DNA from: Saprospiraceae bacterium
GTDB lineage: Bacteria; Bacteroidota; Bacteroidia; Chitinophagales; Saprospiraceae
DNA length: 64,000 nucleotides
Direction: 5' to 3'
Assembly (NCBI GenBank): GCA_034520175.1
Contig: JAXHNU010000028.1
Coordinates: forward strand, 74,252 to 138,251
The number at the start of each line of letters is the position of its first letter. Position 1 is the stretch's first letter. Positions 1 through 47,071 of this stretch are shown piece after piece. Position numbers and translations under genes: made by a program. Below the pieces are notes generated by a model. The model was not told where the DNA came from and ran no database searches. It was given only the letters and a program-made list of their open reading frames with translations.

Positions 1-437
1 TTTGTGCCGTATTGCACGGACATTGGACCTTCAATGAGTTCAATTCGTTCGATGTTTTGAACATTAAGTTGGCTCAAATCAATATTGCCGCCTTGCCGAC
101 CGATAACAGGCACGCCGTCCATTAAAATTTTCACATTTTCTCCCGAAATGCCTTGCATACTCAAACCAGTTCCTAAAATATTGTCTTGTTGCAAACGGAT
201 ATTGGCTTGGTATTTCAACACATCGCCCACATTTTGAACGCCGACCGATGCCAATTTGTCAATCACCAAATTGCGGGTGGCGATAACGGATTTGTCTAAA
301 CCTTGGGGTTTGTAATTGCCTGTTACAATCAATTCTTGCAGTTGACGCGCACTGTCAGACGGCGGTGCAACGGGAGTCGGTGGCGATAACAAGTTTTGGA
401 AAGCCACTATTTGAAAAAGCAATAATTTCGACAGCAT
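1..437 (-). CDS. TonB-dependent receptor, N-terminal part (signal peptide + plug domain); the rest lies beyond the window start
   Basis: Own minus-strand translation from the ATG at 437-435: MLSKLLLFQIVAFQ...ELIVTGNYKPQGLDKSVIATR...GISGENVKILMDGVPVIGRQGGNIDLSQLNVQNIERIELIEGPMSVQYGT. This is a typical plug-domain signature. The frame stays open to base 1; it is absent from the ORF track because it is edge-truncated. Confidence 0.7.
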   Translation of the reverse strand, partial: MLSKLLLFQIVAFQNLLSPPTPVAPPSDSARQLQELIVTGNYKPQGLDKSVIATRNLVIDKLASVGVQNVGDVLKYQANIRLQQDNILGTGLSMQGISGENVKILMDGVPVIGRQGGNIDLSQLNVQNIERIELIEGPMSVQYGT

Positions 438-619
438 CAGACAATAATATATTAGAATTATGTTAGGATTCATTATCTGGCACAAAGGTAGGGTAGAAAT
501 ATGGTGCGGAGAATATTTTGTATTTTTCTGACTTAAATATGACAAGCATTGTGATGACAATCTTGCCACACAGAAAAAAATAAGAATGGACTTCCGCCTT
601 ATGGATTAATATTATGGGT

Positions 620-803
620 TTTGAAACCATACATAAATTCAAAATACGCATTAAAAGGCACTTTTGCGCTCGCTTCGCTCGCGCAAAAGGAAGAGAGTGG
701 TTCATTTTTCGGGCAAAGCCCGAAAAATGAACCACATTCCCCCTCTCGCGCGAGCGAAGCGAGCGCGAGAACCAGCAGTTTAGATTTTATGTATGGTTTC
801 AAA
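620..803 (+). mobile_element. nested-palindrome MITE, type A, full length (184 bp)
   Basis: 18-nt termini TTTGAAACCATACATAAA / TTTATGTATGGTTTCAAA. Inner inverted repeat GCGCTCGCTTCGCTCGCGC / GCGCGAGCGAAGCGAGCGC. Central hairpin GGTTCATTTTTCGGGCAAAGCCCGAAAAATGAACC. Perfect 8-bp flanking duplication TTATGGGT at 612-619 and 804-811. Confidence 0.88.
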
Positions 804-964
804 TTATGGGTAAACAATGGTTGTTTGTAACAATGGAAGGTGAGGCGTCAAACAAAAAATAAAATACCCATTTTGATTGTTAACTGACATTATGCAGTCC
901 CTAAATTTTGAAATTAGATTTTCTTTAAAGATACAAAAAATGTCCATTATTTGATTAAAATTGG

Positions 965-1130
965 GTATTTACTTAGCCCATAGCTCGCTTCGCTCGCAAA
1001 AAAGGGGAATTTGGTTCGTTTTTCGGGTTTTGCCCGAAAAACGAACCAAATTCCCTTTTTGCGAGCGAAGCGAAGCGCGAAAAATAAACCACCTTTCCTC
1101 CTTTTGCACGAGCGAAGCGAGCGCAAAGGC
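965..1130. repeat. core element with GTATTTACTTAGCC arm plus an extra half core
   Basis: GCTCGCTTCGCTCGC ... GGTTCGTTTTTCGGGTTTTGCCCGAAAAACGAACC ... GCGAGCGAAGCGAAGCGC, followed by a second ...GAGCGAAGCGAGCGC half. Confidence 0.75.
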
Positions 1131-1195
1131 GTGTGCTGAAAAGTAGCGATTATTTATGAACAACTACTTGCAATGAAAATCAAGCATTCCCTTAG

Positions 1196-2173
1196 TCACG
1201 TAGGTATCACAACAGATTCTTTGAATGGCTTACGTGCTGTCAAGCCCAACATTTTGAACATATCCATATCCGTATCAAAATCTGGATTGGGCGTTGTCAA
1301 GAGTTTTTCTCCTGCAAAAATCGAATTTGCCCCCGCCATGAAGCACAAGGCTTGTTCTGCAATTGTCATATCGTTGCGACCCGCCGACAAGCGCACAACA
1401 CTTTTCGGCATAATCAACCGCGCTGTTGCAATCATGCGCAACATTTCGTCAATTTGTACTTTTGCGTTGTTCGCTAAAGGTGTTCCTGCTACGGGAACTA
1501 AGGCATTAATTGGCACGGAATCGGGGTGTTCGTCCATTGTTGAGAGCGTGTGCAGCATCTTAATACGGTCATCGTCGGTTTCGCCCAAGCCGATAATACC
1601 GCCACAACAAACCGACATTTTTGCCTTTTTTACGTTCTTCAACGTGTCCAAACGGTCATCAAAAGTGCGTGTTGTGATGATATTCCCGTAATTTTCTTCC
1701 GACGTATCAATATTGTGGTTGTAAGCAAAACAACCCGCCGCTTTCAGTTTTTCGGCTTGTTCGTAGGTCAACATGCCCAATGTGCAGCAAACTTCCATGC
1801 CCATATCGTTGACTTCCGACACCATTTCTAAAACGCGGTCAAAGTCCCGATTGTCGCGCACTTCACGCCAAGCTGCGCCCATGCACAAGCGCGATGCCCC
1901 ATTTGCTTTGGCAATTGCCGCCTGCGTTTTTACTTTTTCAACCGACATTAACGGCTGTACCTCAATATCGGTGTGGTAACGCGCCGCTTGTGGACAATAC
2001 GAACAGTCTTCTTTGCAGCCACCCGTTTTGATGGAAATTAAGCTGCTGACTTGCACCTCGCTGTACGCTTTATTTTGACGGTGAACTGTCGCGGCATCAA
2101 AAACTAAGTCCAATAAGGGACGGTTGTAGATGTTTTCGATTTCGGATAATGTCCAATTGTTTCTAATGACCAT
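1196..2173 (-). CDS. bioB: biotin synthase
   Basis: 325-aa ORF with the radical-SAM CxxxCxxC (GGCKEDCSYCPQ) and a full-length BioB-like layout (YNHNIDTS, GGIIGLGET). Confidence 0.93.
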   Translation of the reverse strand: MVIRNNWTLSEIENIYNRPLLDLVFDAATVHRQNKAYSEVQVSSLISIKTGGCKEDCSYCPQAARYHTDIEVQPLMSVEKVKTQAAIAKANGASRLCMGAAWREVRDNRDFDRVLEMVSEVNDMGMEVCCTLGMLTYEQAEKLKAAGCFAYNHNIDTSEENYGNIITTRTFDDRLDTLKNVKKAKMSVCCGGIIGLGETDDDRIKMLHTLSTMDEHPDSVPINALVPVAGTPLANNAKVQIDEMLRMIATARLIMPKSVVRLSAGRNDMTIAEQALCFMAGANSIFAGEKLLTTPNPDFDTDMDMFKMLGLTARKPFKESVVIPT

Positions 2174-2189
2174 TTTTTTTATTTTTTTT

Positions 2190-2316
2190 GTGATAACTTA
2201 GCCCGCGCTCGCTTCGCTTGCGTGGAAGGAGGAGAGTTGGTTCATTTTTCGAGCAAAGCCCGAAAAATGAACCAATCTTCTTTTGCGAGCGCAGAGAGTA
2301 ATAGGCTAAGTATTAC
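2190..2316. repeat. nested-palindrome element, type B (GTAATTACTTAGCC-type arms)
   Basis: GTGATAACTTAGCCCGCGCTCGCTTCGC ... central hairpin ... GGCTAAGTATTAC. It sits between the divergent bioB and tpiA genes. Confidence 0.8.
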
Positions 2317-2463
2317 ATTTTTTTTAAGTATTCGCAAATCGCTTAACTTTTGAAGCCGCAAAATTAGAAAAACTCACAAGAATCGGAAATAAAGAATTCA
2401 GAAAAGGCAAACACTTCTTGACACTAAAATTTCATTTTGATTTGGGAAACTCACGAGATAATG

Positions 2464-2471
2464 TATTTTTG
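2464..2471 (+). promoter_or_regulatory. candidate Bacteroidota -7 box (TAnnTTTG) upstream of tpiA
   Basis: TATTTTTG, 20 nt before the first ATG. Confidence 0.4.
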
Positions 2472-2490
2472 CGGCGAAATATGATACTTA

Positions 2491-3273
2491 ATGCTTTTAA
2501 AAGAAATCATGGCAAAATCTAAGAAACAAAAAATCGTTGCGGGCAACTGGAAAATGAATAAAACATTGCCCGATGCCCTTGCTTTAGCGCAACAAATTGC
2601 GGCAAAAGAATTGCCGAAAGACGTGATTACGGTCTTGTGTGTCCCCTCAGTATTTGCGGCAGAAATCGGCAAAATCATTGGGTCAAATCCTAATTTGAAA
2701 CTCGGCGCACAAAATTGTCATCACGAAGTAAGTGGTGCTTACACGGGCGAAACTTCGGTGGATATGTTGCAAAGTGTTGGTGTTGAATACGTTATCGTTG
2801 GTCACTCCGAGCGTCGTGAATATCAAAACGAAAGCAGCGATGTATTGGTTAAGAAAATAAATTTGCTTTTGTCGAAAGGTATGACGCCTATTTATTGTTG
2901 CGGTGAACCCCTCAGTATTCGGGAAAAAAACCGCCAAAACTCAGCCGTTGCAAAGCAAATCAAAAATGATTTGTATCATTTGGCTGCCGAGCAAATGGCG
3001 AAAATTGTTATCGCTTATGAGCCGATTTGGGCTATCGGTACGGGTTTGACGGCTTCGCCAGAACAGGCGCAAGAAATGCACAATTTTATCCGTCGGACGG
3101 TTAAAAAGCAATTTGGCAACGACATTGCAAAAAATACAACGATTCTTTACGGTGGTTCAGCAAATGCTGCCAATGCTAAAATATTGTTCGCTCAAAAAGA
3201 CGTGGACGGTGGGTTGATTGGTGGGGCATCGTTAAAAGCAGACGATTTTACTACAATTATTGGGTCATATTAA
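2491..3273 (+). CDS. tpiA: triosephosphate isomerase
   Basis: Motifs GNWKMN, GHSERR, AYEPIWAIGTG and GGASLK. The real start is probably the second ATG at 2509 (MAKSKKQKIVAGNWKMN). Confidence 0.95.
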   Translation: MLLKEIMAKSKKQKIVAGNWKMNKTLPDALALAQQIAAKELPKDVITVLCVPSVFAAEIGKIIGSNPNLKLGAQNCHHEVSGAYTGETSVDMLQSVGVEYVIVGHSERREYQNESSDVLVKKINLLLSKGMTPIYCCGEPLSIREKNRQNSAVAKQIKNDLYHLAAEQMAKIVIAYEPIWAIGTGLTASPEQAQEMHNFIRRTVKKQFGNDIAKNTTILYGGSANAANAKILFAQKDVDGGLIGGASLKADDFTTIIGSY

Positions 3274-3289
3274 TTGCTGATGTTACACA

Positions 3290-3336
3290 GAGCCGTAGGC
3301 TCGACCCATATGTATATACACCGAGCCTACGGCTCT
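3290..3336. repeat. palindromic CCTACGG-type hairpin pair downstream of tpiA
   Basis: AGAGCCGTAGGCTCG (3290-3304) and CGAGCCTACGGCTCT (3322-3336) are exact reverse complements. Related short hairpins appear at about 3360-3377, 3392-3404, 41660-41810 and 51650-51730. Confidence 0.6.
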
Positions 3337-3520
3337 TAAATAATTGGTTTTAAACTTTCGGCGGATTGAAATCCGCCGCTACAAAATTGGTCATGCCTAC
3401 GGCATTTTTGGCACATCTGCGTGACATAAGTCAATTAGTTCTACTTTGTTCTTTGAACTGGCTCTTTTTCGCTCGAAAATCGCCCGAAAGTAATTTTTAG
3501 AGGTGAGCGTGTTTTTAAAT

Positions 3521-3704
3521 TTTGAAACCATACATAAATTCAAAATACGCATTAAAAGGCATTTTTGCGCTCGCTTCGCTCGCGCAAAAGGAGGAGAGGT
3601 GGTTCATTTTTCGGGCAAAGCCCGAAAAATGAACCACATTCCCCCTTCGCGCGAGCGAAGCGAGCGCGAAAACCAGCAGTTTAGATTTTATGTATGGTTT
3701 CAAA
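3521..3704 (+). mobile_element. nested-palindrome MITE, type A, full length (184 bp)
   Basis: Same termini and core as 620-803. Perfect 8-bp duplication TTTTAAAT at 3513-3520 and 3705-3712. It is inserted in the middle of another palindrome (GAGCGTGTTTTTAAA at about 3505-3519 and TTTAAAAACACGCTC at about 3737-3751). Confidence 0.88.
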
Positions 3705-3813
3705 TTTTAAATCAGAAAAATCTTCGATTTTTTTGATTTAAAAACACGCTCGCCCCGTAGATTTCTTCCAACAGGCGATTTTTGAGCGAAGCGAAAAAAG
3801 CCAGTAAATATCT

Positions 3814-3821
3814 TACATTTG
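3814..3821 (+). promoter_or_regulatory. candidate -7 box (TAnnTTTG) upstream of the enoyl-CoA hydratase gene
   Basis: TACATTTG, 14 nt before the ATG at 3835. Confidence 0.4.
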
Positions 3822-3834
3822 AAATTAAAAAATA

Positions 3835-4617
3835 ATGGACTATCAAAATATTCTAATCGAAAATGACAACGGTATTGTCATTTTAACTTTCAATCGGGAA
3901 AAAGCGCTCAATGCTTTGAATCAAGTGACGATGACTGAAATCAAATATTTTTTTGACAAAGGATACAAAGATTTTGCTGATTTGAAAGGTGTTATCCTCA
4001 CAGGTACAGGGGTAAAAGCCTTTGTTGCGGGTGCAGACATTACGGAATTTACAAATTTGGCGATTAATGGCGAGCAAATGGCACAACGGGGGCAAGATAT
4101 TTTCTTCCTTATTGAGCAGTTTCACAAGCCCGTTATTGCCGCAGTGAACGGTTTTGCACTCGGTGGCGGTTGCGAATTGGCGATGGCTTGCCACATGCGT
4201 ATCGCTTCACCCAATGCAAAATTTGCGCAACCCGAAGTCAATTTGGGGATTATCCCCGGCTACGGTGGCACGCAACGCCTCGTACAATTGATTGGCAAAG
4301 GGCGGGCTTACGAATTGTTGATGACGGGCGATATGATTGATGCTGCCGAAGCCCACCGCACGGGTTTGGTGAATCATGTGGTGGAAGAAGGGCAAACAGT
4401 GGCAAAAGCAAAGGAAATTATCGCAAAAATTGCGACAAAAGCTCCGCTTGCGATTGCAAAAATTGTAGAAGCCGTCAACGCCCATTTTGACCCGGGTGGC
4501 GATGCTGGCTTTTTCCGCGAAGTTGTGGAGTTTGGTAAATGTGCCAAATCTAAAGACTTTAAAGAGGGAGCAGCCGCTTTTGTTGAGAAAAGAAAACCTG
4601 TTTTTACGGGAAAGTAA
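3835..4617 (+). CDS. enoyl-CoA hydratase/isomerase (crotonase) family protein
   Basis: 260 aa. Crotonase oxyanion-hole segments FVAGADI and GFALGGGCELAMACHMRIAS. Confidence 0.9.
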   Translation: MDYQNILIENDNGIVILTFNREKALNALNQVTMTEIKYFFDKGYKDFADLKGVILTGTGVKAFVAGADITEFTNLAINGEQMAQRGQDIFFLIEQFHKPVIAAVNGFALGGGCELAMACHMRIASPNAKFAQPEVNLGIIPGYGGTQRLVQLIGKGRAYELLMTGDMIDAAEAHRTGLVNHVVEEGQTVAKAKEIIAKIATKAPLAIAKIVEAVNAHFDPGGDAGFFREVVEFGKCAKSKDFKEGAAAFVEKRKPVFTGK

Positions 4618-4620
4618 TCT

Positions 4621-5484
4621 ATGAAAAATTATCTCTCGCTTATCAAATTTAGCCACACCATTTTTGCTTTGCCGTTTGCTTTGGTTGGTTTTTTTCTGGC
4701 TACTTATCAGACGGGTAAAAATATTGAATACATTACGCTCATTTTGATTGTGATGTGCATGGTGTTTGCGCGCTCGGCTGCAATGGCATTTAATCGGTAT
4801 TTGGATAGGGATATTGATGCCAAAAACCCGCGTACCATTATCCGCGAGATTCCTGCGGGTGTGGTGTCGCCGACGGCTGCTTTGGTTTTTGTCATTATTA
4901 ATGCTGTTTCATTTATCATTACGACCTATTTTATTAATCCTTTGTGTTTTTATTTATCACCCATTGCTTTACTCGTTGTTTTGGGATATAGCTACACAAA
5001 AAGGTTCACGTCTTTGTGCCATTTTGTACTGGGTTTGGGCTTGTCTTTAGCACCGATTGGCGCGTATTTAGCCGTTACAGGACAGTTTTCTTTACTACCT
5101 ATTTTGTATTCTATTGCCGTTTTACTTTGGGTATCGGGCTTTGATATTATGTACGCTTTGCAAGATGAAGACTTTGATAAGTCATTGAATCTCAATTCTA
5201 TTCCGGTGCGTCTGGGCAGAAAAAACGCTTTGAGACTGTCCGAAATTTTACATATTTTATGTGCTATCGTGATTGTAACTGCCGTTTTTCTCATAAATAC
5301 TGAGGGGGGGAATTTTAGCTATTTGCACCTAATTGGGACAGGTATTTTTATTGGCTTATTGACCTATCAGCACACACTGGTAAAACCCAATGATTTATCG
5401 AAAATAAATATGGCTTTTTTTACCACAAATGGCATTGCAAGTGTGGTGTATGGGAGTTTTTTTATTTTAGACTACTTTTTCTAA
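4621..5484 (+). CDS. UbiA family aromatic prenyltransferase (4-hydroxybenzoate polyprenyltransferase-like)
   Basis: 287-aa polytopic protein with NRYLDRDIDAKNPRT (NxxxDxxxD) and a second Asp-rich motif YALQDEDFD. Confidence 0.85.
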   Translation: MKNYLSLIKFSHTIFALPFALVGFFLATYQTGKNIEYITLILIVMCMVFARSAAMAFNRYLDRDIDAKNPRTIIREIPAGVVSPTAALVFVIINAVSFIITTYFINPLCFYLSPIALLVVLGYSYTKRFTSLCHFVLGLGLSLAPIGAYLAVTGQFSLLPILYSIAVLLWVSGFDIMYALQDEDFDKSLNLNSIPVRLGRKNALRLSEILHILCAIVIVTAVFLINTEGGNFSYLHLIGTGIFIGLLTYQHTLVKPNDLSKINMAFFTTNGIASVVYGSFFILDYFF

Positions 5485-19004: not shown

Positions 19005-19049
19005 AAAAATACTGAGGGGGTAGCCAAGCAACACGCTGGGCTGCCTTTT
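19005..19049 (+). repeat. 44-45-bp module: AAAATACTGAGGGGG + terminator-like hairpin + T-run (copy 1)
   Basis: AAAAATACTGAGGGGGTAGCCAAGCAACACGCTGGGCTGCCTTTT. The stem is AGCCAAGC/GCTGGGCT with one mismatch and the loop is AACAC. Confidence 0.85.
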
Positions 19050-39155: not shown

Positions 39156-40699
39156 GCTTCAATTTCGTTTATAATGTTATCAATACTTGCCCGCAGCGCG
39201 TTAATCTTCTCTACGGTTGCCGCAATGTCCGTATTTAGCTGCCCAATATCCACCTTTTCAGTTTTATCCTTGGCTTCGATGTAGGAACTGACGGAAAGGT
39301 TATAATCGTTGTCGGCAATAGCGGTATTAGCGACTGATTTTGCGATATATGGCACATCTTCTTTTTTATCAAAAATGTCCATAATGCGGTCAATGTGTTT
39401 ATCTTCCAACACATTGTTATTGGTCACTTTCTTGAAGAAATCTTCGCCACTTACGTCAATAAACTGCGTGGTGTTCTCGGTTTTGTGTTTAGACAACACG
39501 AGGATATACACCGCTATCGAAGTGCCAAAGAACAGATTGGGCGCGAGCGAAATGACGGTTTCCACAAAATTATTGTCCACCAAGTATTTTCTAATTTTCT
39601 GCTCCGCGCCGCCCCGATAAAAAATACCCGGGAAACAGACCAATGCCGCCCTGCCCGTAGGCGAAAGATAGCTGAGGGCGTGCAACACAAAGGCAAAATC
39701 GGCTTTTGACTTGGGCGCAAGCACGCCCGCAGGTGCAAAACGGTCATCGTTAATCAAAGTCGGGTCGCCGTCGCCAATCCAATTGACCGAGTAAGGCGGA
39801 TTAGAAACAATGGCATCGAAGGGTTTTTCGTCGCCATACTGAGGGGTCAAAAGCGTATCGCCCAATGCCATATAAAACTTATCGTAATTGACATTGTGCA
39901 AAAACATATTCATACGGGCAAGATTGTAGGTCGTGTGGTTGATTTCCTGCCCATAAAAACCCTCTTCAATCACGTGGTTATCAAAATGTTTTTTGGCTTG
40001 CAGCAGCAACGAACCCGAACCCGCCGCAGGGTCATATATCTTGTTCACTTTGTCTTGTTTGTGCATCGCCAACTGCGCAATGAGCTTGGATACGCTTTGG
40101 GGCGTAAAAAACTCACCGCCCGACTTGCCTGCATTGGCAGCATAATTAGAAATCAAAAACTCGTAGGCATCGCCAAAGAGGTCAATCTCATTGTCTTCAA
40201 AATTGCCAAAATTCAGTTCTTCCACGCCTTTCAAAACGGCAGCCAAACGGCTGTTTTTGTTTTCCACGGTATTGCCCAATCGGGTACTCGTGGTGTCAAA
40301 ATCGGCAAACAAGCCCTTTATGTCTTGTTCCGAAGGATAGCCATTGGCGGAACTTTCGATGGCATCAAAAATGGCTTTTAAGTCCGTATTCAAGTTTGTG
40401 TTGGTGTTCGCTGCTTTGGCAACGTTCACAAAAAGCTGACTCGGATAGATAAAATACCCTTTTGTTTTGATGGCATCGTCTTTTATGTCAGGCGTGAGGG
40501 CATTGTCGGGCAGATTGGCGTAGTTGACACTTTCATCGCCGCCTTCGATGTAAACCGTAAAATTTTCACTGATAAACCGATAGAACAGCGCACCCAAAAC
40601 GAAATGTTTAAAGTCCCAACCGTCCACCGAGCCACGCACGTCGTTGGCTATTTTCCATATTTTGGCTTGCAGTTCAGCCCTTTGCGTTGCACTTGTCAT
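39152..40699 (-). CDS. hsdM: type I restriction-modification system M subunit (N6-adenine methyltransferase)
   Basis: 515-aa intact ORF. SAM motif [10 protein letters not shown] and catalytic VSNPPYS. Confidence 0.92.
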
Positions 40700-40961: not shown

Positions 40962-40994
40962 ATTTTTTCTAAGAATAGTTGTTCTTTACTGATA

Positions 40995-41035
40995 TACTGA
41001 GGGGGGGAGTCAAGCAACACGCTGGGCTACCTTTT
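40995..41035 (+). repeat. same module (copy 3, diverged)
   Basis: TACTGAGGGGGGGAGTCAAGCAACACGCTGGGCTACCTTTT. Confidence 0.8.
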
Positions 41036-41088
41036 GTTTTTCATGCGAAAAGGGAGTGTTTTAAACCCGTAAAATCTGAAAAGAGGCT

Positions 41089-41158: not shown

Positions 41159-41653
41159 ATGAAAGTTGTAAATATTCACAATATTCTTTTAGAAGAACCA
41201 AGCAGAAAAGACCGAGAGGTTGTTATCGTTTACCCTTTTAATACCGAAACCAAAGAAATATTTATCATTCAGGAGTATATTCACGGTTATGATAGAAAAT
41301 TTTGGAAATTTGTAAGTGGTGGCATTGACAAGGTAGGTAAAGATATAATAACCCACGCAATCGAGGAACTTGCGGAAGAAGTAGGCATGGAGTCTAACCA
41401 AGTATATCATCTGTACTCATCGGAGCGTATTTTTGGCAACCGACCTATACATTGTTTTATTGCCGAAAACCCTATTGTGATGGATAATCCACCAGAAAAT
41501 CCAGACGATGATTACATAACTGCTACTAAATGGGTGAATCAGACTGAATTTCAAAAAATGTTAGACAGCCAAGAATTAATTTGGGACCAAGGCACGATTT
41601 GCGCTTTACAAGCATTTAGAAAGTATATACTGGTAACTTCGGAAATCTCTTGA
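41159..41653 (+). CDS. NUDIX hydrolase family protein
   Basis: 164 aa. Nudix-box-like GGIDKVGKDIITHAIEELAEEVGM. The last 10 codons run into the 26-bp terminal inverted repeat of the element at 41624-41841. Confidence 0.65.
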   Translation: MKVVNIHNILLEEPSRKDREVVIVYPFNTETKEIFIIQEYIHGYDRKFWKFVSGGIDKVGKDIITHAIEELAEEVGMESNQVYHLYSSERIFGNRPIHCFIAENPIVMDNPPENPDDDYITATKWVNQTEFQKMLDSQELIWDQGTICALQAFRKYILVTSEIS

Positions 41654-41850: not shown

Positions 41851-41918
41851 GTAATTACTTAGTCACGCGCTCGCTTCGCGCGCGATGGAGGAACGTGGTT
41901 CGTTTTTCGGCGAAGCCG
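41851..41918. repeat. left half of a type B element, truncated in the central hairpin loop
   Basis: GTAATTACTTAGTCACGCGCTCGCTTCGCGCGCG ... GGTTCGTTTTTCGGCGAAGCCG. It then changes abruptly to the TAACTGAGGAGG... module at 41919. Confidence 0.75.
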
Positions 41919-41958
41919 TAACTGAGGAGGTGCCAAGTAACACGCTGGGCTGCCTTTT
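41919..41958 (+). repeat. same module (copy 4, diverged), abutting a truncated repeat element
   Basis: TAACTGAGGAGGTGCCAAGTAACACGCTGGGCTGCCTTTT. Confidence 0.8.
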
Positions 41959-41977
41959 CTTTTTTCTAAAAAAAGAC

Positions 41978-42090: not shown

Positions 42091-43626
42091 ATGAAAAAAT
42101 ACATCAATTTATTTGACTTCAAACAAGAAGTAGATTACAAAACAGAGATTTTGTCGGGCTTGACGGTCGCCTTAGCCTTAGTGCCAGAAGCCATTGCTTT
42201 TGCGCTGATTGCAGGTTTATCACCTCTAACGGGTTTGTATGCAGCTTTTATGATGGGCTTGATTACGGCTGTTTTTGGTGGTCGCCCTGGCATGATTTCC
42301 GGTGCAACGGGTGCGGTAGCGGTTGTGATTGTGGCATTGGCAAAAACGCACGGAGTTGAATATATCTTCGCAACTGTTGTTTTGGCGGGTATCATACAGA
42401 TAATTGCGGGCGTTTTGCGCTTGGGCAAATTCATTCGTTTAGTGCCGCACCCTGTTATGTTTGGTTTTGTGAATGGCTTGGCGATTGTGATTTTTATGTC
42501 TCAATTAGACCAATTCAAAACCAAAAATACGGACGGGGTGCTTCAATGGATGACAGGGACGCCTTTGATGATAATGTTGGGTTTGGTCGGCTTGACGATG
42601 CTCATTATTTGGGGTTTGCCCAAATTGACAAAAGTAGTACCTGCCTCTTTGGTGGCTATTTTGACCATTTTTGGCTTAGTCACGGCGTTTAACATTGACA
42701 CCACAACCGTTGGCGATATTGCTTCCATACAAGGTGGTTTTCCACCGTTTCACATTCCAAACATTCCGTTTACGATTGAAACTTTGCAAATTATACTGCC
42801 TTATGCTTTGATTGTGGCAGCCGTTGGTTTGATTGAAAGCCTTTTGACTTTAAACTTGATAGACGAAATAACAGAATCTCGTGGGCGTGGCAACAAAGAA
42901 GCCGTAGCGCAAGGCGTGGCAAATTTCCTATCGGGCTTGTTTTCGGGCATGGGCGGTTGTGCCATGATTGGGCAAAGTTTAATCAATATATCGAGTGGCG
43001 CGAGGGCAAGATTATCGGGTATTGTTGCCGCCGTGATGCTCTTGGTTTTTGTGATGTTTGGAGCCAATTTAATTGAAAAAATGCCGATGGCAGCCTTGAC
43101 GGGTCTGATGATAATGGTGGCAATCGGTACGTTTGAATGGGCAAGTTTTCGTGTGATTAACAAAATGCCGAAACACGATATTTTTGTCGGTATGTTGGTC
43201 GCTCTCATTACCGTTTTACTCCACAATTTAGCCTTAGCTGTCTTGATTGGTGTCGTTATTTCTGCCTTAGTTTTTGCTTGGGAAAGTGCCAAACGCATCC
43301 GTGCAAGAAAATTTGTTGATGGCGAAGGCGTAAAACATTACGAGATTTATGGACCTTTATTCTTCGCTTCAACGGCTGCTTTTACCGAAAAATTTGACGT
43401 TTTGAATGACCCCAACGAAGTCATCATTGATTTCAAAGAAAGCCGTATCAATGATATGAGTGCCATTGAATGTGTCAATAGACTCACCGAACGCTATTTG
43501 AAGGCAGGAAAACTAGTACATTTGAGGCATTTGAGCGCGGATTGTCGGCAATTGTTGCAAAATGCGGATAAGGTGATTGATGTAAATATTATGGAAGACC
43601 CGACTTATAAAGTCATGGTTGATTAA
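42091..43626 (+). CDS. SulP family inorganic anion transporter with C-terminal STAS domain
   Basis: 511 aa, polytopic. N-terminal ...EILSGLTVALALVPEAIAFALIAG and a STAS-like C-terminus (YEIYGPLFFAST...). Confidence 0.9.
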   Translation: MKKYINLFDFKQEVDYKTEILSGLTVALALVPEAIAFALIAGLSPLTGLYAAFMMGLITAVFGGRPGMISGATGAVAVVIVALAKTHGVEYIFATVVLAGIIQIIAGVLRLGKFIRLVPHPVMFGFVNGLAIVIFMSQLDQFKTKNTDGVLQWMTGTPLMIMLGLVGLTMLIIWGLPKLTKVVPASLVAILTIFGLVTAFNIDTTTVGDIASIQGGFPPFHIPNIPFTIETLQIILPYALIVAAVGLIESLLTLNLIDEITESRGRGNKEAVAQGVANFLSGLFSGMGGCAMIGQSLINISSGARARLSGIVAAVMLLVFVMFGANLIEKMPMAALTGLMIMVAIGTFEWASFRVINKMPKHDIFVGMLVALITVLLHNLALAVLIGVVISALVFAWESAKRIRARKFVDGEGVKHYEIYGPLFFASTAAFTEKFDVLNDPNEVIIDFKESRINDMSAIECVNRLTERYLKAGKLVHLRHLSADCRQLLQNADKVIDVNIMEDPTYKVMVD

Positions 43627-43629
43627 CAG

Positions 43630-43678
43630 GTTTTAGAAGTAAAAAAGGCGAAAAGTCAAACGATTTTAAACCCAAATG
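43630..43678 (+). repeat. 49-bp direct repeat, left boundary of the low-GC AbiL-like islet
   Basis: GTTTTAGAAGTAAAAAAGGCGAAAAGTCAAACGATTTTAAACCCAAATG. It matches 45982-46030 at 42 of 49 positions by my alignment. Confidence 0.75.
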
Positions 43679-43793
43679 TTCTAATTTTACAAAAATAGGA
43701 CATTTATGACCCGAATTCATAAAATTACGAGGGGACTATTTTGAAGCATTTAGCGACAAAATAGACCCCTCAGTAAACAAGTTAGGAAATATT

Positions 43794-44524
43794 TTAAGAC
43801 TCAAGCGGGCTTATTAATTCTTTTACCAACAGATGTACTTTTGCACATGGACAATGCTGATGCAGAGGTTTAGGAGAACCTGCAAAATGGAACGCTTCTA
43901 ATTTTTCGGCTCTGTCAATGGCAATATCAAGGCTTCCTTTCATTAATTTATAGGTATATGTAAGGAAGTTCTTTTTTGACTTCATTGTCGTATAATAATC
44001 AAATCTCTGGTGTTGAAACTTTGTTTCGTGCAGGCAGACTTTGCTTTCAAAATTTCAGTTAAGCAACTCATAATACTTTCTCTCTGCTCAAATAATCAGG
44101 ATTATTAGGGTCAACGTCTTCAAAATGAAGCAAAATCCATAATTCAAAATCATCATTACTCCAAGCGGTCTTAATACCTTTGGCGTTTGCGGTTCTTATA
44201 GAATCGTTAAATGCTGTGTCTTTTCCATCGTTTGGTTCTCTATCTCGGTCAAATACGCACCAAACTTGCGCCCCGTCATCAAATTTCAATACTTCTCTAA
44301 TAACCCCATTGATTTCATCTACTTCAAGCTAACCCTTCTTTTTCCTGAAAAATTCGGTTGCATAAGTCCACTTGGGCGTGGTGTTGCTTTTTGTTGCCGT
44401 GTGTAGACATCATGGACATCTTTCGCATGAACATGTTTCAAAAATTAGGCAGGCTCTACAGCCCCTATCTTCATAAAAAATGATGAACACCTTTTTTGAA
44501 TCTTCTTTTCTACTATCGTCTATT
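43794..44524 (-). pseudogene. RloB/AbiLii-like protein, disrupted (several frameshifts and stops)
   Basis: Recognisable pieces sit in different frames. They are: ...KKVFIIFYE... (N-terminal CEG-like segment), VDEINGVIREVLKFDDGAQVWCVFDRD...AWSNDDFELWILLHFE (44068-44289), and a C-terminal piece ...IDRAEKL...KVHLLVKEL (43794-43985). In-frame TAA, TAG and TGA stops separate them. Confidence 0.65.
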
Positions 44525-45817
44525 TTAATATCCCAAGGTTCCATTATGCTCTAAGTTTTTATCAGACAAAAATTCTGAAAGCGTCGGTACGCCGCCATAG
44601 AACCCTGCTAAATATTGTTTTGCAAAATCTGCATCATTTCTAATGCCTTTCAATTCAGCTAAAGAATACAATCTTGTTCCATCATTTGTCTCTTTCTCAG
44701 CAAAGTAAAATTGGTCTCTTCTCATCAAAGAAGGACTCATAAGATTGGTGTCATGACTTGTGAACAATAATTGTGCATTAGATTTGTTAATTTCTGGGTC
44801 GTTAAAAAGACCAATTAACTTAATCAACAACGAAGGATGAAAATTACTATCTATCTCATCTAAAACTATTAGTCCACTGATTTGGATATTGAACGCATGA
44901 AGAAGTAGCCCTGCAATATCAAATAGCTTCTTGGTGCCGTCTGATTCGTTCTCCTGCATATTCAAGGTAATATTTATTTTTTCGTCATGACAAGATTTTT
45001 TGGTCAAGAAAATTTTTTCTAACGAAAGGTGATTATTTGCGCCATTACTTCCTTCTTTTTTAAAATAAATATCATCGTAATTTAGTCCAAATGCCCTTAA
45101 AAAGTCTAAAAATTTAGGTTTTAACTCAGCATCTTCTATATGTTTTATTGAATGAAACCGATGAGAATCACTACGTACACTTAATTCATAAGTAACCAAT
45201 CCTCTTATAAAATTTCGGATTTGAGCGCAAATACCCTTATTGTAAGAAGCGGCATGAGTCAAAAATAATGTGTGTTCGTACTCTAATTGAGCGATATTTT
45301 CATTGCTTGGTAAATTTGTTTTATCAATTTCTAAATTTTTCCGCGTAAAATATTTTCCTTGATTTGTATTTTTAAGACCAAATAACCACTCACTTGTGAT
45401 GATTTCTCTGCTAATATTTGAATCATTATCTGCTTCGGTTTTTCTTTTCACAGTAAATCCGTATCTGTATTTTTTCCCTTCAATCATCAATACAATCTGA
45501 AAAAATGATTCCGTATTTTCTGAATCATCTTGATATAAAAAAGGTTGCGCCACTTTAGAAAGTCTTGATTCTGGGCTTGGTAAGTTAGAAATTGCTTCAC
45601 AAAAAAATTCAAGTGCTTTGATGATATTACTTTTTCCACTTGCATTTGCACCGTATATTCCTATTGTCTTCAATAGCTTCACGCCATTGTCGGAAACAAT
45701 GTTATTTGAATCTACAATTTTGTTCTCCTCAGAACTTTTTAAGTTCGTTGAGGCAAAGCTTATTGTTTGCAAACTATGGATTGACCTGAAATTTTTTACG
45801 CTGAATTCGACTATCAT
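44525..45817 (-). CDS. AAA family ATPase (AbiLi / AAA_21-like, ABC-type fold)
   Basis: 430 aa. N-terminal FSVKNFRSI, Walker A GANASGKSN and Walker B LIVLDEIDSNFHP. Markedly AT-rich. Confidence 0.8.
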   Translation of the reverse strand: MIVEFSVKNFRSIHSLQTISFASTNLKSSEENKIVDSNNIVSDNGVKLLKTIGIYGANASGKSNIIKALEFFCEAISNLPSPESRLSKVAQPFLYQDDSENTESFFQIVLMIEGKKYRYGFTVKRKTEADNDSNISREIITSEWLFGLKNTNQGKYFTRKNLEIDKTNLPSNENIAQLEYEHTLFLTHAASYNKGICAQIRNFIRGLVTYELSVRSDSHRFHSIKHIEDAELKPKFLDFLRAFGLNYDDIYFKKEGSNGANNHLSLEKIFLTKKSCHDEKINITLNMQENESDGTKKLFDIAGLLLHAFNIQISGLIVLDEIDSNFHPSLLIKLIGLFNDPEINKSNAQLLFTSHDTNLMSPSLMRRDQFYFAEKETNDGTRLYSLAELKGIRNDADFAKQYLAGFYGGVPTLSEFLSDKNLEHNGTLGY

Positions 45818-45949
45818 TTTTTTAAATTTGAATTATTTGTGCAAAAATAGAAATTTATAAATAAAAATAAAAATTTTTTTGACTCGATTTGCAGAAAATC
45901 GACAAATTTGTGAAAAGACAATATGTATTATTTAACTAAGCTCTCAGAC

Positions 45950-47071
45950 TCAAAACGGCTGTCCGTGCGTCAAATCAATAAGTTTTTGCAGCAAAAAAGG
46001 CGAAAAGTCCAGCGATTTCAAACTCAAATGAGTCATCGTATTGTTTCCAAAAACGTGTTGAATATAGTAGCCCGCCTTGATGCGATTGGCAAATTGTCCC
46101 CGCCAAAGTTCATCATATTGCTTTGTTAATTGCGTTTTTAACATTTTTTCATTTAAAAAATCGCTAATTAGAGGCGTTAAAAGGTAAGAGGCGCGCATTG
46201 CCAAACTCATGCCGTTGCCACAAAGCGGTGCGATTGCACCCGCCGCGTCACCCAACAAAATCACATCGTTTGCGAAGGTCGTTTTGGCGTTGAAAGTGAC
46301 GTTGCTGATGACTTCGGGTTTGTCAAAAAGAAAAGTGCTTTCCTTAAAAATACGTTTTAAAAAAGGGTTGCGCATCAACACCGATTGCTCCATTTGCGCG
46401 ATGTCTTTGCCGTGATTTTTGAGATTGTCGGCGGTCGTCAAATAGCACAGACAGTATTGATTTTTGTCAATTTTTGAAATGCCGCAATAGCCGTCTTTGA
46501 AGTTGTGCAATTCGATTCGGTCGTCTGGAAAATCGGTTTCGATGTGGTATTTTACACCAATGTAGTTCTTTTTAGGCGCGTCTTGTTTGTCCATAAACGA
46601 CGGGCTGATTTTACCATAACTACCCGCCATGATTCGGGCTTCAAAAATGCCTTTATTTGTTTTAATTATTTGATTATCAATATCTTGAACTTTACAATTA
46701 TCAAAAATAGTTACCCCATTTTCACGCGCCAATTGGACCAAAAAATTATCCAAAGTATAGCGACTTACGCCAAAACCACCCAGTTTTAAATCCGCGTTCA
46801 ACATAAAACCTTGCGTTGAACTCACGCCCAATCGGTTGATTTTGGGCAATGACCAATCGGACAAAGGCACGCCCAATCGTTCTAAAAAAGCCCAACTTTC
46901 CATCGAAATATACTCGCCGCAAACCTTGTGGAAAGGGTACGCGTTTTTTTCAAACAGAACAACTTGATGCCCATGTTTTGCCAGTTGAACCGACAAACAA
47001 AGCCCCGCTAAACCACCGCCAATGATGGCACAGTCGTAAGAAATGTTGCTCAATTTTTCTTCTTGTTTCAT
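45950..47071 (-). CDS. FAD-dependent oxidoreductase (flavoprotein monooxygenase / geranylgeranyl-reductase-like)
   Basis: 373 aa. Dinucleotide-binding YDCAIIGGGLAGL, plus GDAAGAIAPLCGNG. Confidence 0.85.
   Translation of the reverse strand: MKQEEKLSNISYDCAIIGGGLAGLCLSVQLAKHGHQVVLFEKNAYPFHKVCGEYISMESWAFLERLGVPLSDWSLPKINRLGVSSTQGFMLNADLKLGGFGVSRYTLDNFLVQLARENGVTIFDNCKVQDIDNQIIKTNKGIFEARIMAGSYGKISPSFMDKQDAPKKNYIGVKYHIETDFPDDRIELHNFKDGYCGISKIDKNQYCLCYLTTADNLKNHGKDIAQMEQSVLMRNPFLKRIFKESTFLFDKPEVISNVTFNAKTTFANDVILLGDAAGAIAPLCGNGMSLAMRASYLLTPLISDFLNEKMLKTQLTKQYDELWRGQFANRIKAGYYIQHVFGNNTMTHLSLKSLDFSPFLLQKLIDLTHGQPF
45982..46030 (+). repeat. 49-bp direct repeat, right boundary (inside the 3' end of the FAD-oxidoreductase gene)
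   Basis: GTTTTTGCAGCAAAAAAGGCGAAAAGTCCAGCGATTTCAAACTCAAATG. On the minus strand it encodes ...HLSLKSLDFSPFLLQK... Confidence 0.75.

Follow-up and report, generated by a model that had tools for sequence, protein, structure and literature searches.

A 64,000-nt stretch of the chromosome of a Saprospiraceae bacterium (assembly GCA_034520175.1, contig JAXHNU010000028.1, positions 74,252 to 138,251; hereafter the window) carries a low-GC islet between a sulP anion transporter gene and a gene for a flavin adenine dinucleotide (FAD)-dependent oxidoreductase, bounded by a direct repeat. A first-pass annotation had interpreted the islet as the product of site-specific integration into the 3' end of the oxidoreductase gene. 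We conclude instead, with a probability of about 0.6, that it is a recombinase-less, horizontally acquired cassette of the AbiL abortive-infection type with a dead effector gene and a constrained ATPase gene, and that the repeat is an old scar, not a pair of attachment (att) sites. The genome comprises 5.3 Mb in 44 contigs, with a completeness of 91.9%, and the contig of the window is 147 kb in length. The cassette and the hairpin beside it are organized as follows (window coordinates).

43729-43775, no strand: strong hairpin formed by the inverted word pair TTACGAGGGG ... CCCCTCAGTA
43776-45912, minus strand: conserved transferable unit of ~2.14 kb, consisting of the promoter region, the AbiLi ATPase gene, RloB/AbiLii and ~20 nt
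43794-44544, minus strand: RloB/AbiLii pseudogene (TOPRIM/OLD-like effector), with PF13707 on two fragments and PADLOC AbiLii
44525-45817, minus strand: intact gene for an AbiLi-type ABC/AAA_21 ATPase of 430 amino acids (PADLOC AbiLi, Pfam AAA_21)
45818-45912, minus strand: putative cassette-borne AT-rich promoter region (95 nt; GC content 0.18; conserved TAnnTTTG motif)

Only the ATPase and RloB fragments are encoded between the repeats. The ATPase matched the PADLOC model AbiLi (PDLC02335) across residues 1-421 with E=2.4e-81, and Pfam PF13304 (AAA_21) with 8.1e-31, a value that exceeds the cut-off. Its translation contains a Walker A motif (GANASGKSN), a Walker B motif (LIVLDEID) and an FTSHD motif (H-loop), and its length equals that of hundreds of homologues at 66-84% identity. 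Two fragments of the partner gene matched the RloB profile PF13707 (1.9e-18 and 4e-5); the fragment at 44068-44289 scored 67.8 bits against this profile (cut-off 31.5) and matched PADLOC AbiLii with 1.4e-11. Both profile calls agree with the AAA ATPase and RloB/AbiLii-like identities proposed in the first-pass annotation. Among solved structures, no sequence homologue was found for the ATPase or the RloB protein. Upstream of the ATPase start there is a TAnnTTTG box, which we take to be the known consensus of the Bacteroidota -7 type promoter motif; as aligned by eye, the promoter region of the cassette is conserved with the regions upstream of the ATPase genes in the closest homologous cassettes, at loci L017, L018 and L021.

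Intact partners elsewhere are RloB genes of 238-242 amino acids that start 20 nt inside the 3' end of the ATPase gene. The gene in the window has kept the same ATG, at 44544, and the same 20-nt overlap with the ATPase gene as in L017, L018 and L019. Employing DNA alignment and frameshift-aware protein-to-DNA alignment against the intact 242-amino-acid gene of L017, we located six frameshifts (five +1 and one +2, near 44466, 44411, 44365, 44082, 44063 and 44044) and two in-frame stops (TAA and TAG). With the frame corrected, 185 of the 242 residues (76%) are identical to those of the L017 protein. The effector had been described as a pseudogene, and the comparison with the intact homologue agreed with this description. 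Judged by these lesions the RloB effector gene is inactivated, so that the islet does not hold an AbiL system with both genes intact, and the abortive-infection defence has presumably been lost. Among 45 loci of the cassette family that were examined, the RloB gene is broken or missing next to an intact ATPase gene at L044 and L052; the homologous cassettes in other Bacteroidota otherwise carry an adjacent RloB gene. At L049, L058 and L060 a frameshifted ATPase gene accompanies an intact RloB gene, indicating that decay occurs on either side.

The ATPase gene showed a different picture. Eight lesions (the six frameshifts and two stops) were found in the 0.75 kb of RloB versus none in the 1.29 kb of the ATPase gene. 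At the lesion density of RloB, the ATPase gene should have gathered ~14 disabling lesions, and the observation of none argues that this gene is still under selection. The ratio of nonsynonymous to synonymous divergence (dN/dS) was ~0.10 on the window branch, not above that on the branches of L017 and L018 (~0.12), and the synonymous divergence (dS) of the cassette branch was 0.53. These comparisons argue that purifying selection on the ATPase gene would have persisted after the loss of the effector.

The cassette differs in composition from its surroundings. The GC content is 0.333 for 43776-45912 versus 0.43 in sulP and 0.41 in the oxidoreductase gene; the islet had been called low-GC, and the measured value of 0.33 bears this out. 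In the 32 other species of the genus searched, no ATPase exceeded 41% identity, whereas homologues at 66-84% identity abound in other Bacteroidota, among them Cytophagales, Chitinophagales, Flavobacterium, Lacinutrix and Bacteroidales, where they occupy unrelated contexts. By blastn, window positions 43812-45907 showed 82-83% DNA identity to L017 and L018; as judged by eye against L017, L018 and L021, homology reaches to ~43776 and ~45912. The unit thus delimited ends 97 nt inside the left copy of the repeat and 61 nt inside the right copy. The word TACTGAGGGG, or a near-variant, is also found on the contigs of L017, L018 and L021, which suggests that these three cassettes stem from related bacteria. 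On the evidence of composition and homology, the cassette is horizontally acquired and exchanged among Bacteroidota.

The word TACTGAGGGG occurs 40 times in the window. The first-pass annotation had stated that it is absent between the repeats; this was wrong, as an exact copy is located at 43766-43775 on the minus strand, where it forms the hairpin 43729-43775 with a degenerate partner. The folding energy of this hairpin is -25.6 / -27.0 kcal/mol (z ~-7), and it probably acts as a terminator in both directions, for sulP and for the cassette. In a cassette-free relative, L014, an equivalent word-pair hairpin is situated 53 nt past the oxidoreductase stop. Without the cassette, the distance from stop to hairpin in the window would come to ~40-60 nt. 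We also considered an integron gene cassette and rejected it: the sole hairpin is not an attC-type palindrome of the cassette but is built from the genome-wide word, and the cassette-free relative has an equivalent after its oxidoreductase gene. An array of repeats of the attC kind was encountered at the Lacinutrix locus L026 only.

The repeat and the two genes that flank the islet have the following positions.

42091-43626, plus strand: sulP, left flank gene, encoding a SulP-family anion transporter of 511 amino acids (Pfam Sulfate_transp 1.4e-59, and a STAS domain)
43622-43678, no strand: left copy of the 57-nt direct repeat, a decayed, non-coding version of oxidoreductase codons 348-366
45950-47071, minus strand: right flank gene, encoding an FAD-dependent oxidoreductase of 373 amino acids (Pfam FAD_binding_3 and DAO)
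45950-45973, minus strand: tail of the oxidoreductase, LTHGQPF*, which occurs once in the window
45974-46030, no strand: right repeat copy (57 nt), which encodes oxidoreductase residues 348-366 (HLSLKSLDFSPFLLQKLID)

The two copies of the repeat are identical at 47 of 57 positions (18% diverged), with a possible weak, gapped extension of the left copy by ~18 nt to 43696. A shorter version, matching at 42 of 49 positions, had been noted before and was recovered here. In a flank-versus-flank test, the repeat scored 32, compared with 9.6 +/- 1.2 (maximum 13) for shuffled flanks. Exactly these two copies are present in the 5.3-Mb genome, and the metagenome contigs contained no match. With two genomic copies only, none in the metagenome contigs and no membership in the families of miniature inverted-repeat transposable elements (MITEs), the repeat was rejected as a dispersed element. 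No listed MITE family has a copy inside the bounds of the islet, in line with the earlier statement on this point. A paralogue as the source was likewise rejected, because the genome has no paralogue of the oxidoreductase gene.

As had been noted, the left copy lies just after sulP and is decayed and non-coding; it begins at the stop codon of sulP. Its best match is the oxidoreductase gene of the window itself (47/57), compared with 37/48 for the corresponding segments of both L014 and L015 and 31/38 for that of L016. The ten differences between the copies show no bias in codon position. At four of the ten the left copy shows the state of the relatives; both copies have therefore diverged since the duplication. 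The coding copy has changed since then at ~3 of 19 third (synonymous) positions. These figures suggest that the duplication is old, yet its age would be compatible with that of the arrival of the cassette, given the branch dS reported above. The repeat had been described as a duplicate of the 3' end of the oxidoreductase gene. A near-3' segment is indeed duplicated, but the repeat halts 24 nt before the stop codon, and the last seven codons plus the stop are present once. The tail is kept in all relatives (24 of 26 nt in a congener with a 57%-identical protein); with this single conserved tail in the window, nothing has visibly been "restored". The duplication is thus real and old, and what it copied is an internal stretch of the oxidoreductase gene close to the 3' end.

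To learn whether flanking direct repeats are typical of this cassette, we took 41 loci and set the 350 nt upstream of each ATPase gene against the 350 nt downstream of RloB. Flanking repeats were significant at two of them: the window (57 nt) and L026, which contains a repeat array. A 19-nt pair at L018 and a 20-nt pair at L043 were within chance expectation for 40 tests. Flanking repeats were therefore rejected as a general property of the cassette. L026 (positions 1-4640; Lacinutrix sp. C3R15, NZ_JAHKPZ010000003.1) carries the same AbiLi/RloB cassette with 73% amino acid identity. Its array consists of at least four copies, in the same orientation, of an imperfect palindrome of 115-141 nt, one between every gene (1-33, partial; 589-729; 2879-3019; 3527-3619), and looks like either a cassette array of the attC/CALIN type or a family of terminator repeats.

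The junction between sulP and the oxidoreductase gene was searched for, with DNA and protein queries, in 40 relatives and in all 33 genomes of the genus; in addition, a collection of 5.8 billion proteins was queried with the oxidoreductase and sulP proteins, and the contexts of the best matches were read. In none of the genomes searched was sulP found beside the oxidoreductase gene, and none of them was close enough to the window to reveal an empty site. The nearest oxidoreductases are 79% identical (L014), on contigs that end within 229 nt; in those 229 nt, L014 has neither sulP nor a second copy of the repeat. The nearest sulP proteins are 84% identical (congeners G022 and G047), and the genes downstream of them differ from those in the window. 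The top-scoring sulP match, P0242, was set aside as irrelevant; it comes from the sea, and its contig is internally duplicated.

For the origin of the repeat, we built models of att-type integration, Campbell-type single crossover, homology-facilitated illegitimate recombination, and tandem duplication followed by replacement. In the classic signature of site-specific integration, the repeat runs through the gene end, the displaced native end lies by the distal copy, the limits of the inserted DNA coincide with the repeats, and a recombinase gene is present or once was. If this had happened towards the 3' end of the oxidoreductase gene, the 57-mers would be attL and attR, the islet would have supplied a new gene end, and the integrase would have been lost later. 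The repeats are indeed direct, of att-like length, and enclose all of the low-GC DNA; one copy lies in the 3' region of a gene, the classic target; and the age estimated from the synonymous sites is compatible with that of the cassette. The anatomy nevertheless departs from the signature in the extent of the repeat, which stops short of the stop codon, and in the displaced native tail, predicted to lie beside the left copy but absent because the sulP stop abuts that copy. It departs also in the limits of the transferred DNA, which fall well inside both repeats with the host-type word hairpin in between. As had been noted, no integrase gene is present: Phage_integrase (PF00589) had zero matches on the 147-kb contig (serine recombinases and transposases were not searched genome-wide), and in the five other contexts of the cassette that we read in detail, no recombinase gene adjoins it. 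Comparable repeats were absent from 39 of the 40 other loci. Integration of this type, including the restored gene end, is accordingly unlikely.

The repeat may also be older than the cassette and unrelated to it, having arisen by an earlier rearrangement or partial duplication when the sulP block joined the polyketide synthase (PKS) cluster that the oxidoreductase gene terminates; the cassette would have landed later between the oxidoreductase stop and the terminator hairpin. Agreement of the reconstructed stop-to-hairpin distance with that in L014 speaks for this history, as do the position of the left copy on the far side of the hairpin from the cassette, 97 nt from its edge, and the region downstream of sulP, which differs in every congener examined. 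In G022 (L071), moreover, a sequence of 14 nt (TCAAAACGGCTGTC) located 37-51 nt past the sulP stop agrees exactly with the antisense strand of the final codons and stop of the oxidoreductase gene, and may be a remnant of an old adjacency of sulP and the oxidoreductase gene. The match is, however, marginal: 2 of 500 shuffles reached it under one scoring scheme, and it was not significant under others. Between the window and G022, the 3' flanks of sulP showed no significant homology. The lack of sulP (within 229 nt) and of a second copy next to the oxidoreductase gene of L014 also speaks against an older repeat, and we found nothing that positively dates the repeat before the cassette. We regard this history as doubtful. 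Most likely, homology-assisted or illegitimate recombination remodelled the junction and left the repeat as its scar. The odds that it and the cassette arrived in the same event are about even, and it could be a by-product of the insertion.

Several points weigh against our interpretation. Every model that we built needs an extra step to explain a left copy that lacks the tail and abuts the sulP stop; the repeat is therefore treated as a recombination scar with an uncertain history. Even a simple scar requires at least two junctions, one for each end of the left copy, and no model explains well the coincidence that the left copy starts within 0-4 nt of the sulP stop. With neither an empty site nor a close relative available, the history of the junction is read from one sequence. 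Selection on the ATPase gene before the loss of RloB is not separable from selection after it. Finally, the spectrum of the RloB lesions is unusual: the frameshifts are all insertions, outside homopolymers and clustered, and divergence is still of the coding type (0.24 at third codon positions versus 0.06-0.08 at first and second positions). Some of the lesions could for this reason be assembly (consensus) errors. Carried to its limit, this argument would make all the lesions errors and the AbiL pair intact and functional. The insertions, of 1-2 nt and in two clusters, largely offset one another (+6 nt net over the first cluster, +3 nt net over the initial three insertions of the second); the residual coding signal is strong; and the assembly is incomplete and fragmented. 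But ~4 kb of adjoining genes (ATPase, sulP and oxidoreductase) are free of any frameshift, RloB contains two in-frame stops as well, and other genomes have decayed or missing partners too (L044 and L052). We consider wholesale error very improbable.

Based on the above, the following course of events is proposed. An AbiL-type two-gene anti-phage cassette with its own promoter, and without a recombinase of its own, would have entered by horizontal transfer. It would have landed in a variable slot that extends from the 3' end of the last gene of the PKS cluster to the word-pair terminator hairpin downstream of sulP. By analogy with PARIS, the ATPase of an intact system may hold a toxic nuclease, sense infection on its behalf and release it when infection occurs. 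The nuclease gene would then have been inactivated, with loss of the abortive-infection function, and the ATPase gene may have been retained as an orphan sensor or antitoxin-like gene. A solo AbiLi ATPase might also serve some selected function by itself once the nuclease is gone. More broadly, AbiL cassettes might be recombinase-less mobile units that enter terminator-proximal spacers by short-homology capture, duplicating tens of bases of the neighbouring gene, with the 57-mer pair as a footprint; such capture would perhaps follow natural transformation, the genome being saturated with an uptake-signal-like word. This wider proposal is speculative and probably incorrect.

In the literature, AbiL is placed with PARIS, RloAB and other systems that pair an ATPase with a TOPRIM/OLD protein. 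The toxic effector is taken to be AbiLii, with the ATPase as its sensor or neutralizer, a mechanism that is inferred for the family (PMC13064643, PMC10440598). One of the nearest known systems is AbiL of the Lactococcus lactis plasmid pND861 (Deng et al. 1999, as cited in PMC13064643), in the form in which PADLOC models it. Like the cassette in the window, it is a two-gene operon with overlapping genes, in which a gene for an ABC/Rad50-like AAA_21 ATPase is followed by one for an RloB-family TOPRIM/OLD-like protein. The cassette in the window differs in that AbiLii is a pseudogene, that it resides in the chromosome of a member of the Saprospiraceae (Bacteroidota), and that it is known from its sequence alone. 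RloA/RloB occur in Campylobacter type I restriction-modification (R-M) loci (Miller et al. 2005, as cited in PMC13064643 and PMC10440598). They share with the window the RloB family (PF13707), an AAA ATPase and a nearby type I R-M locus, but the pair in the window is not placed between hsd genes and lies ~3 kb from hsdM. PARIS, with the AriA ATPase and the AriB TOPRIM nuclease, has the same architecture and probably the same logic of an ATPase that holds a toxic effector, except that the partner in the window is RloB, not a DUF4435-type AriB. Membership in PARIS was rejected: the AriA models gave 4.8e-27 and 2.7e-5 versus 2.4e-81 for AbiLi, and the partner fragments matched AbiLii/RloB only. 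Integrase-less defence hotspots are found between core genes in the pan-genomes of Escherichia coli and Pseudomonas aeruginosa. These hotspots and the window have in common a small defence cassette amid conserved genes, without mobile-element genes, and the window has a type I R-M locus nearby; such hotspots are not known to include a duplicated gene fragment like the one of 57 nt here. The type of cassette is already known (AbiL/RloAB), and the only unexplained element is this fragment.

For annotation, the analysis identifies a decayed AbiL module and delimits a unit of ~2.1 kb that is exchanged among Bacteroidota. Reading flanking repeats as att sites requires a check of where the transferred DNA ends. 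A constrained ATPase gene beside a decaying toxic partner fits the toxin-antitoxin logic proposed for ATPase plus TOPRIM systems. A gene-fragment duplicate beside an integrase-less defence cassette is a pattern that, with population data, might show how such cassettes move.

The oxidoreductase gene, a pigment/lipid-pathway gene, is the terminal gene of a cluster encoding UbiA, type III PKS, methyltransferase and oxidoreductase, and the synteny from UbiA to the oxidoreductase is contiguous in the nearest relatives (L014, L015 and G003). Between the cassette and the oxidoreductase gene there is a spacer of 37 nt, followed by the final 24 nt of the gene. No tRNA gene and no Rfam family was found at the islet site. 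On the other side, the type I R-M locus ends with hsdM at 40699, and the ~3 kb from there towards the cassette contains a NUDIX gene, MITEs and sulP.

With homologues in Arcicella, Sediminibacterium and Hugenholtzia, which belong to distant orders of Bacteroidota, the SulP protein shares 80-84% identity, as much as with those of congeners; either unusually strong conservation or horizontal exchange would account for this. Its C-terminal residues, KVMVD, deviate from the conserved ...VA[LIV][DE] of relatives. In contig C36 of G022 (L003:1-669), the slot after sulP contains a gene for a protein of 176 amino acids and a gene for a different ATPase, of AAA_15/AAA_23 type; in other species, too, genes of the defence type may occupy the slot beside sulP. 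The NUDIX gene (41159-41653) is bracketed by two copies (40992-41042 and 41915-41965) of a 51-nt terminator-like element, composed of the word TACTGAGGGG, a GGTAGCC...GGCTGCC hairpin and a T-run. Near-identical copies occur at 19006 and 20332. Successive accessory genes that share one terminator element can mimic "cassette-flanking repeats".

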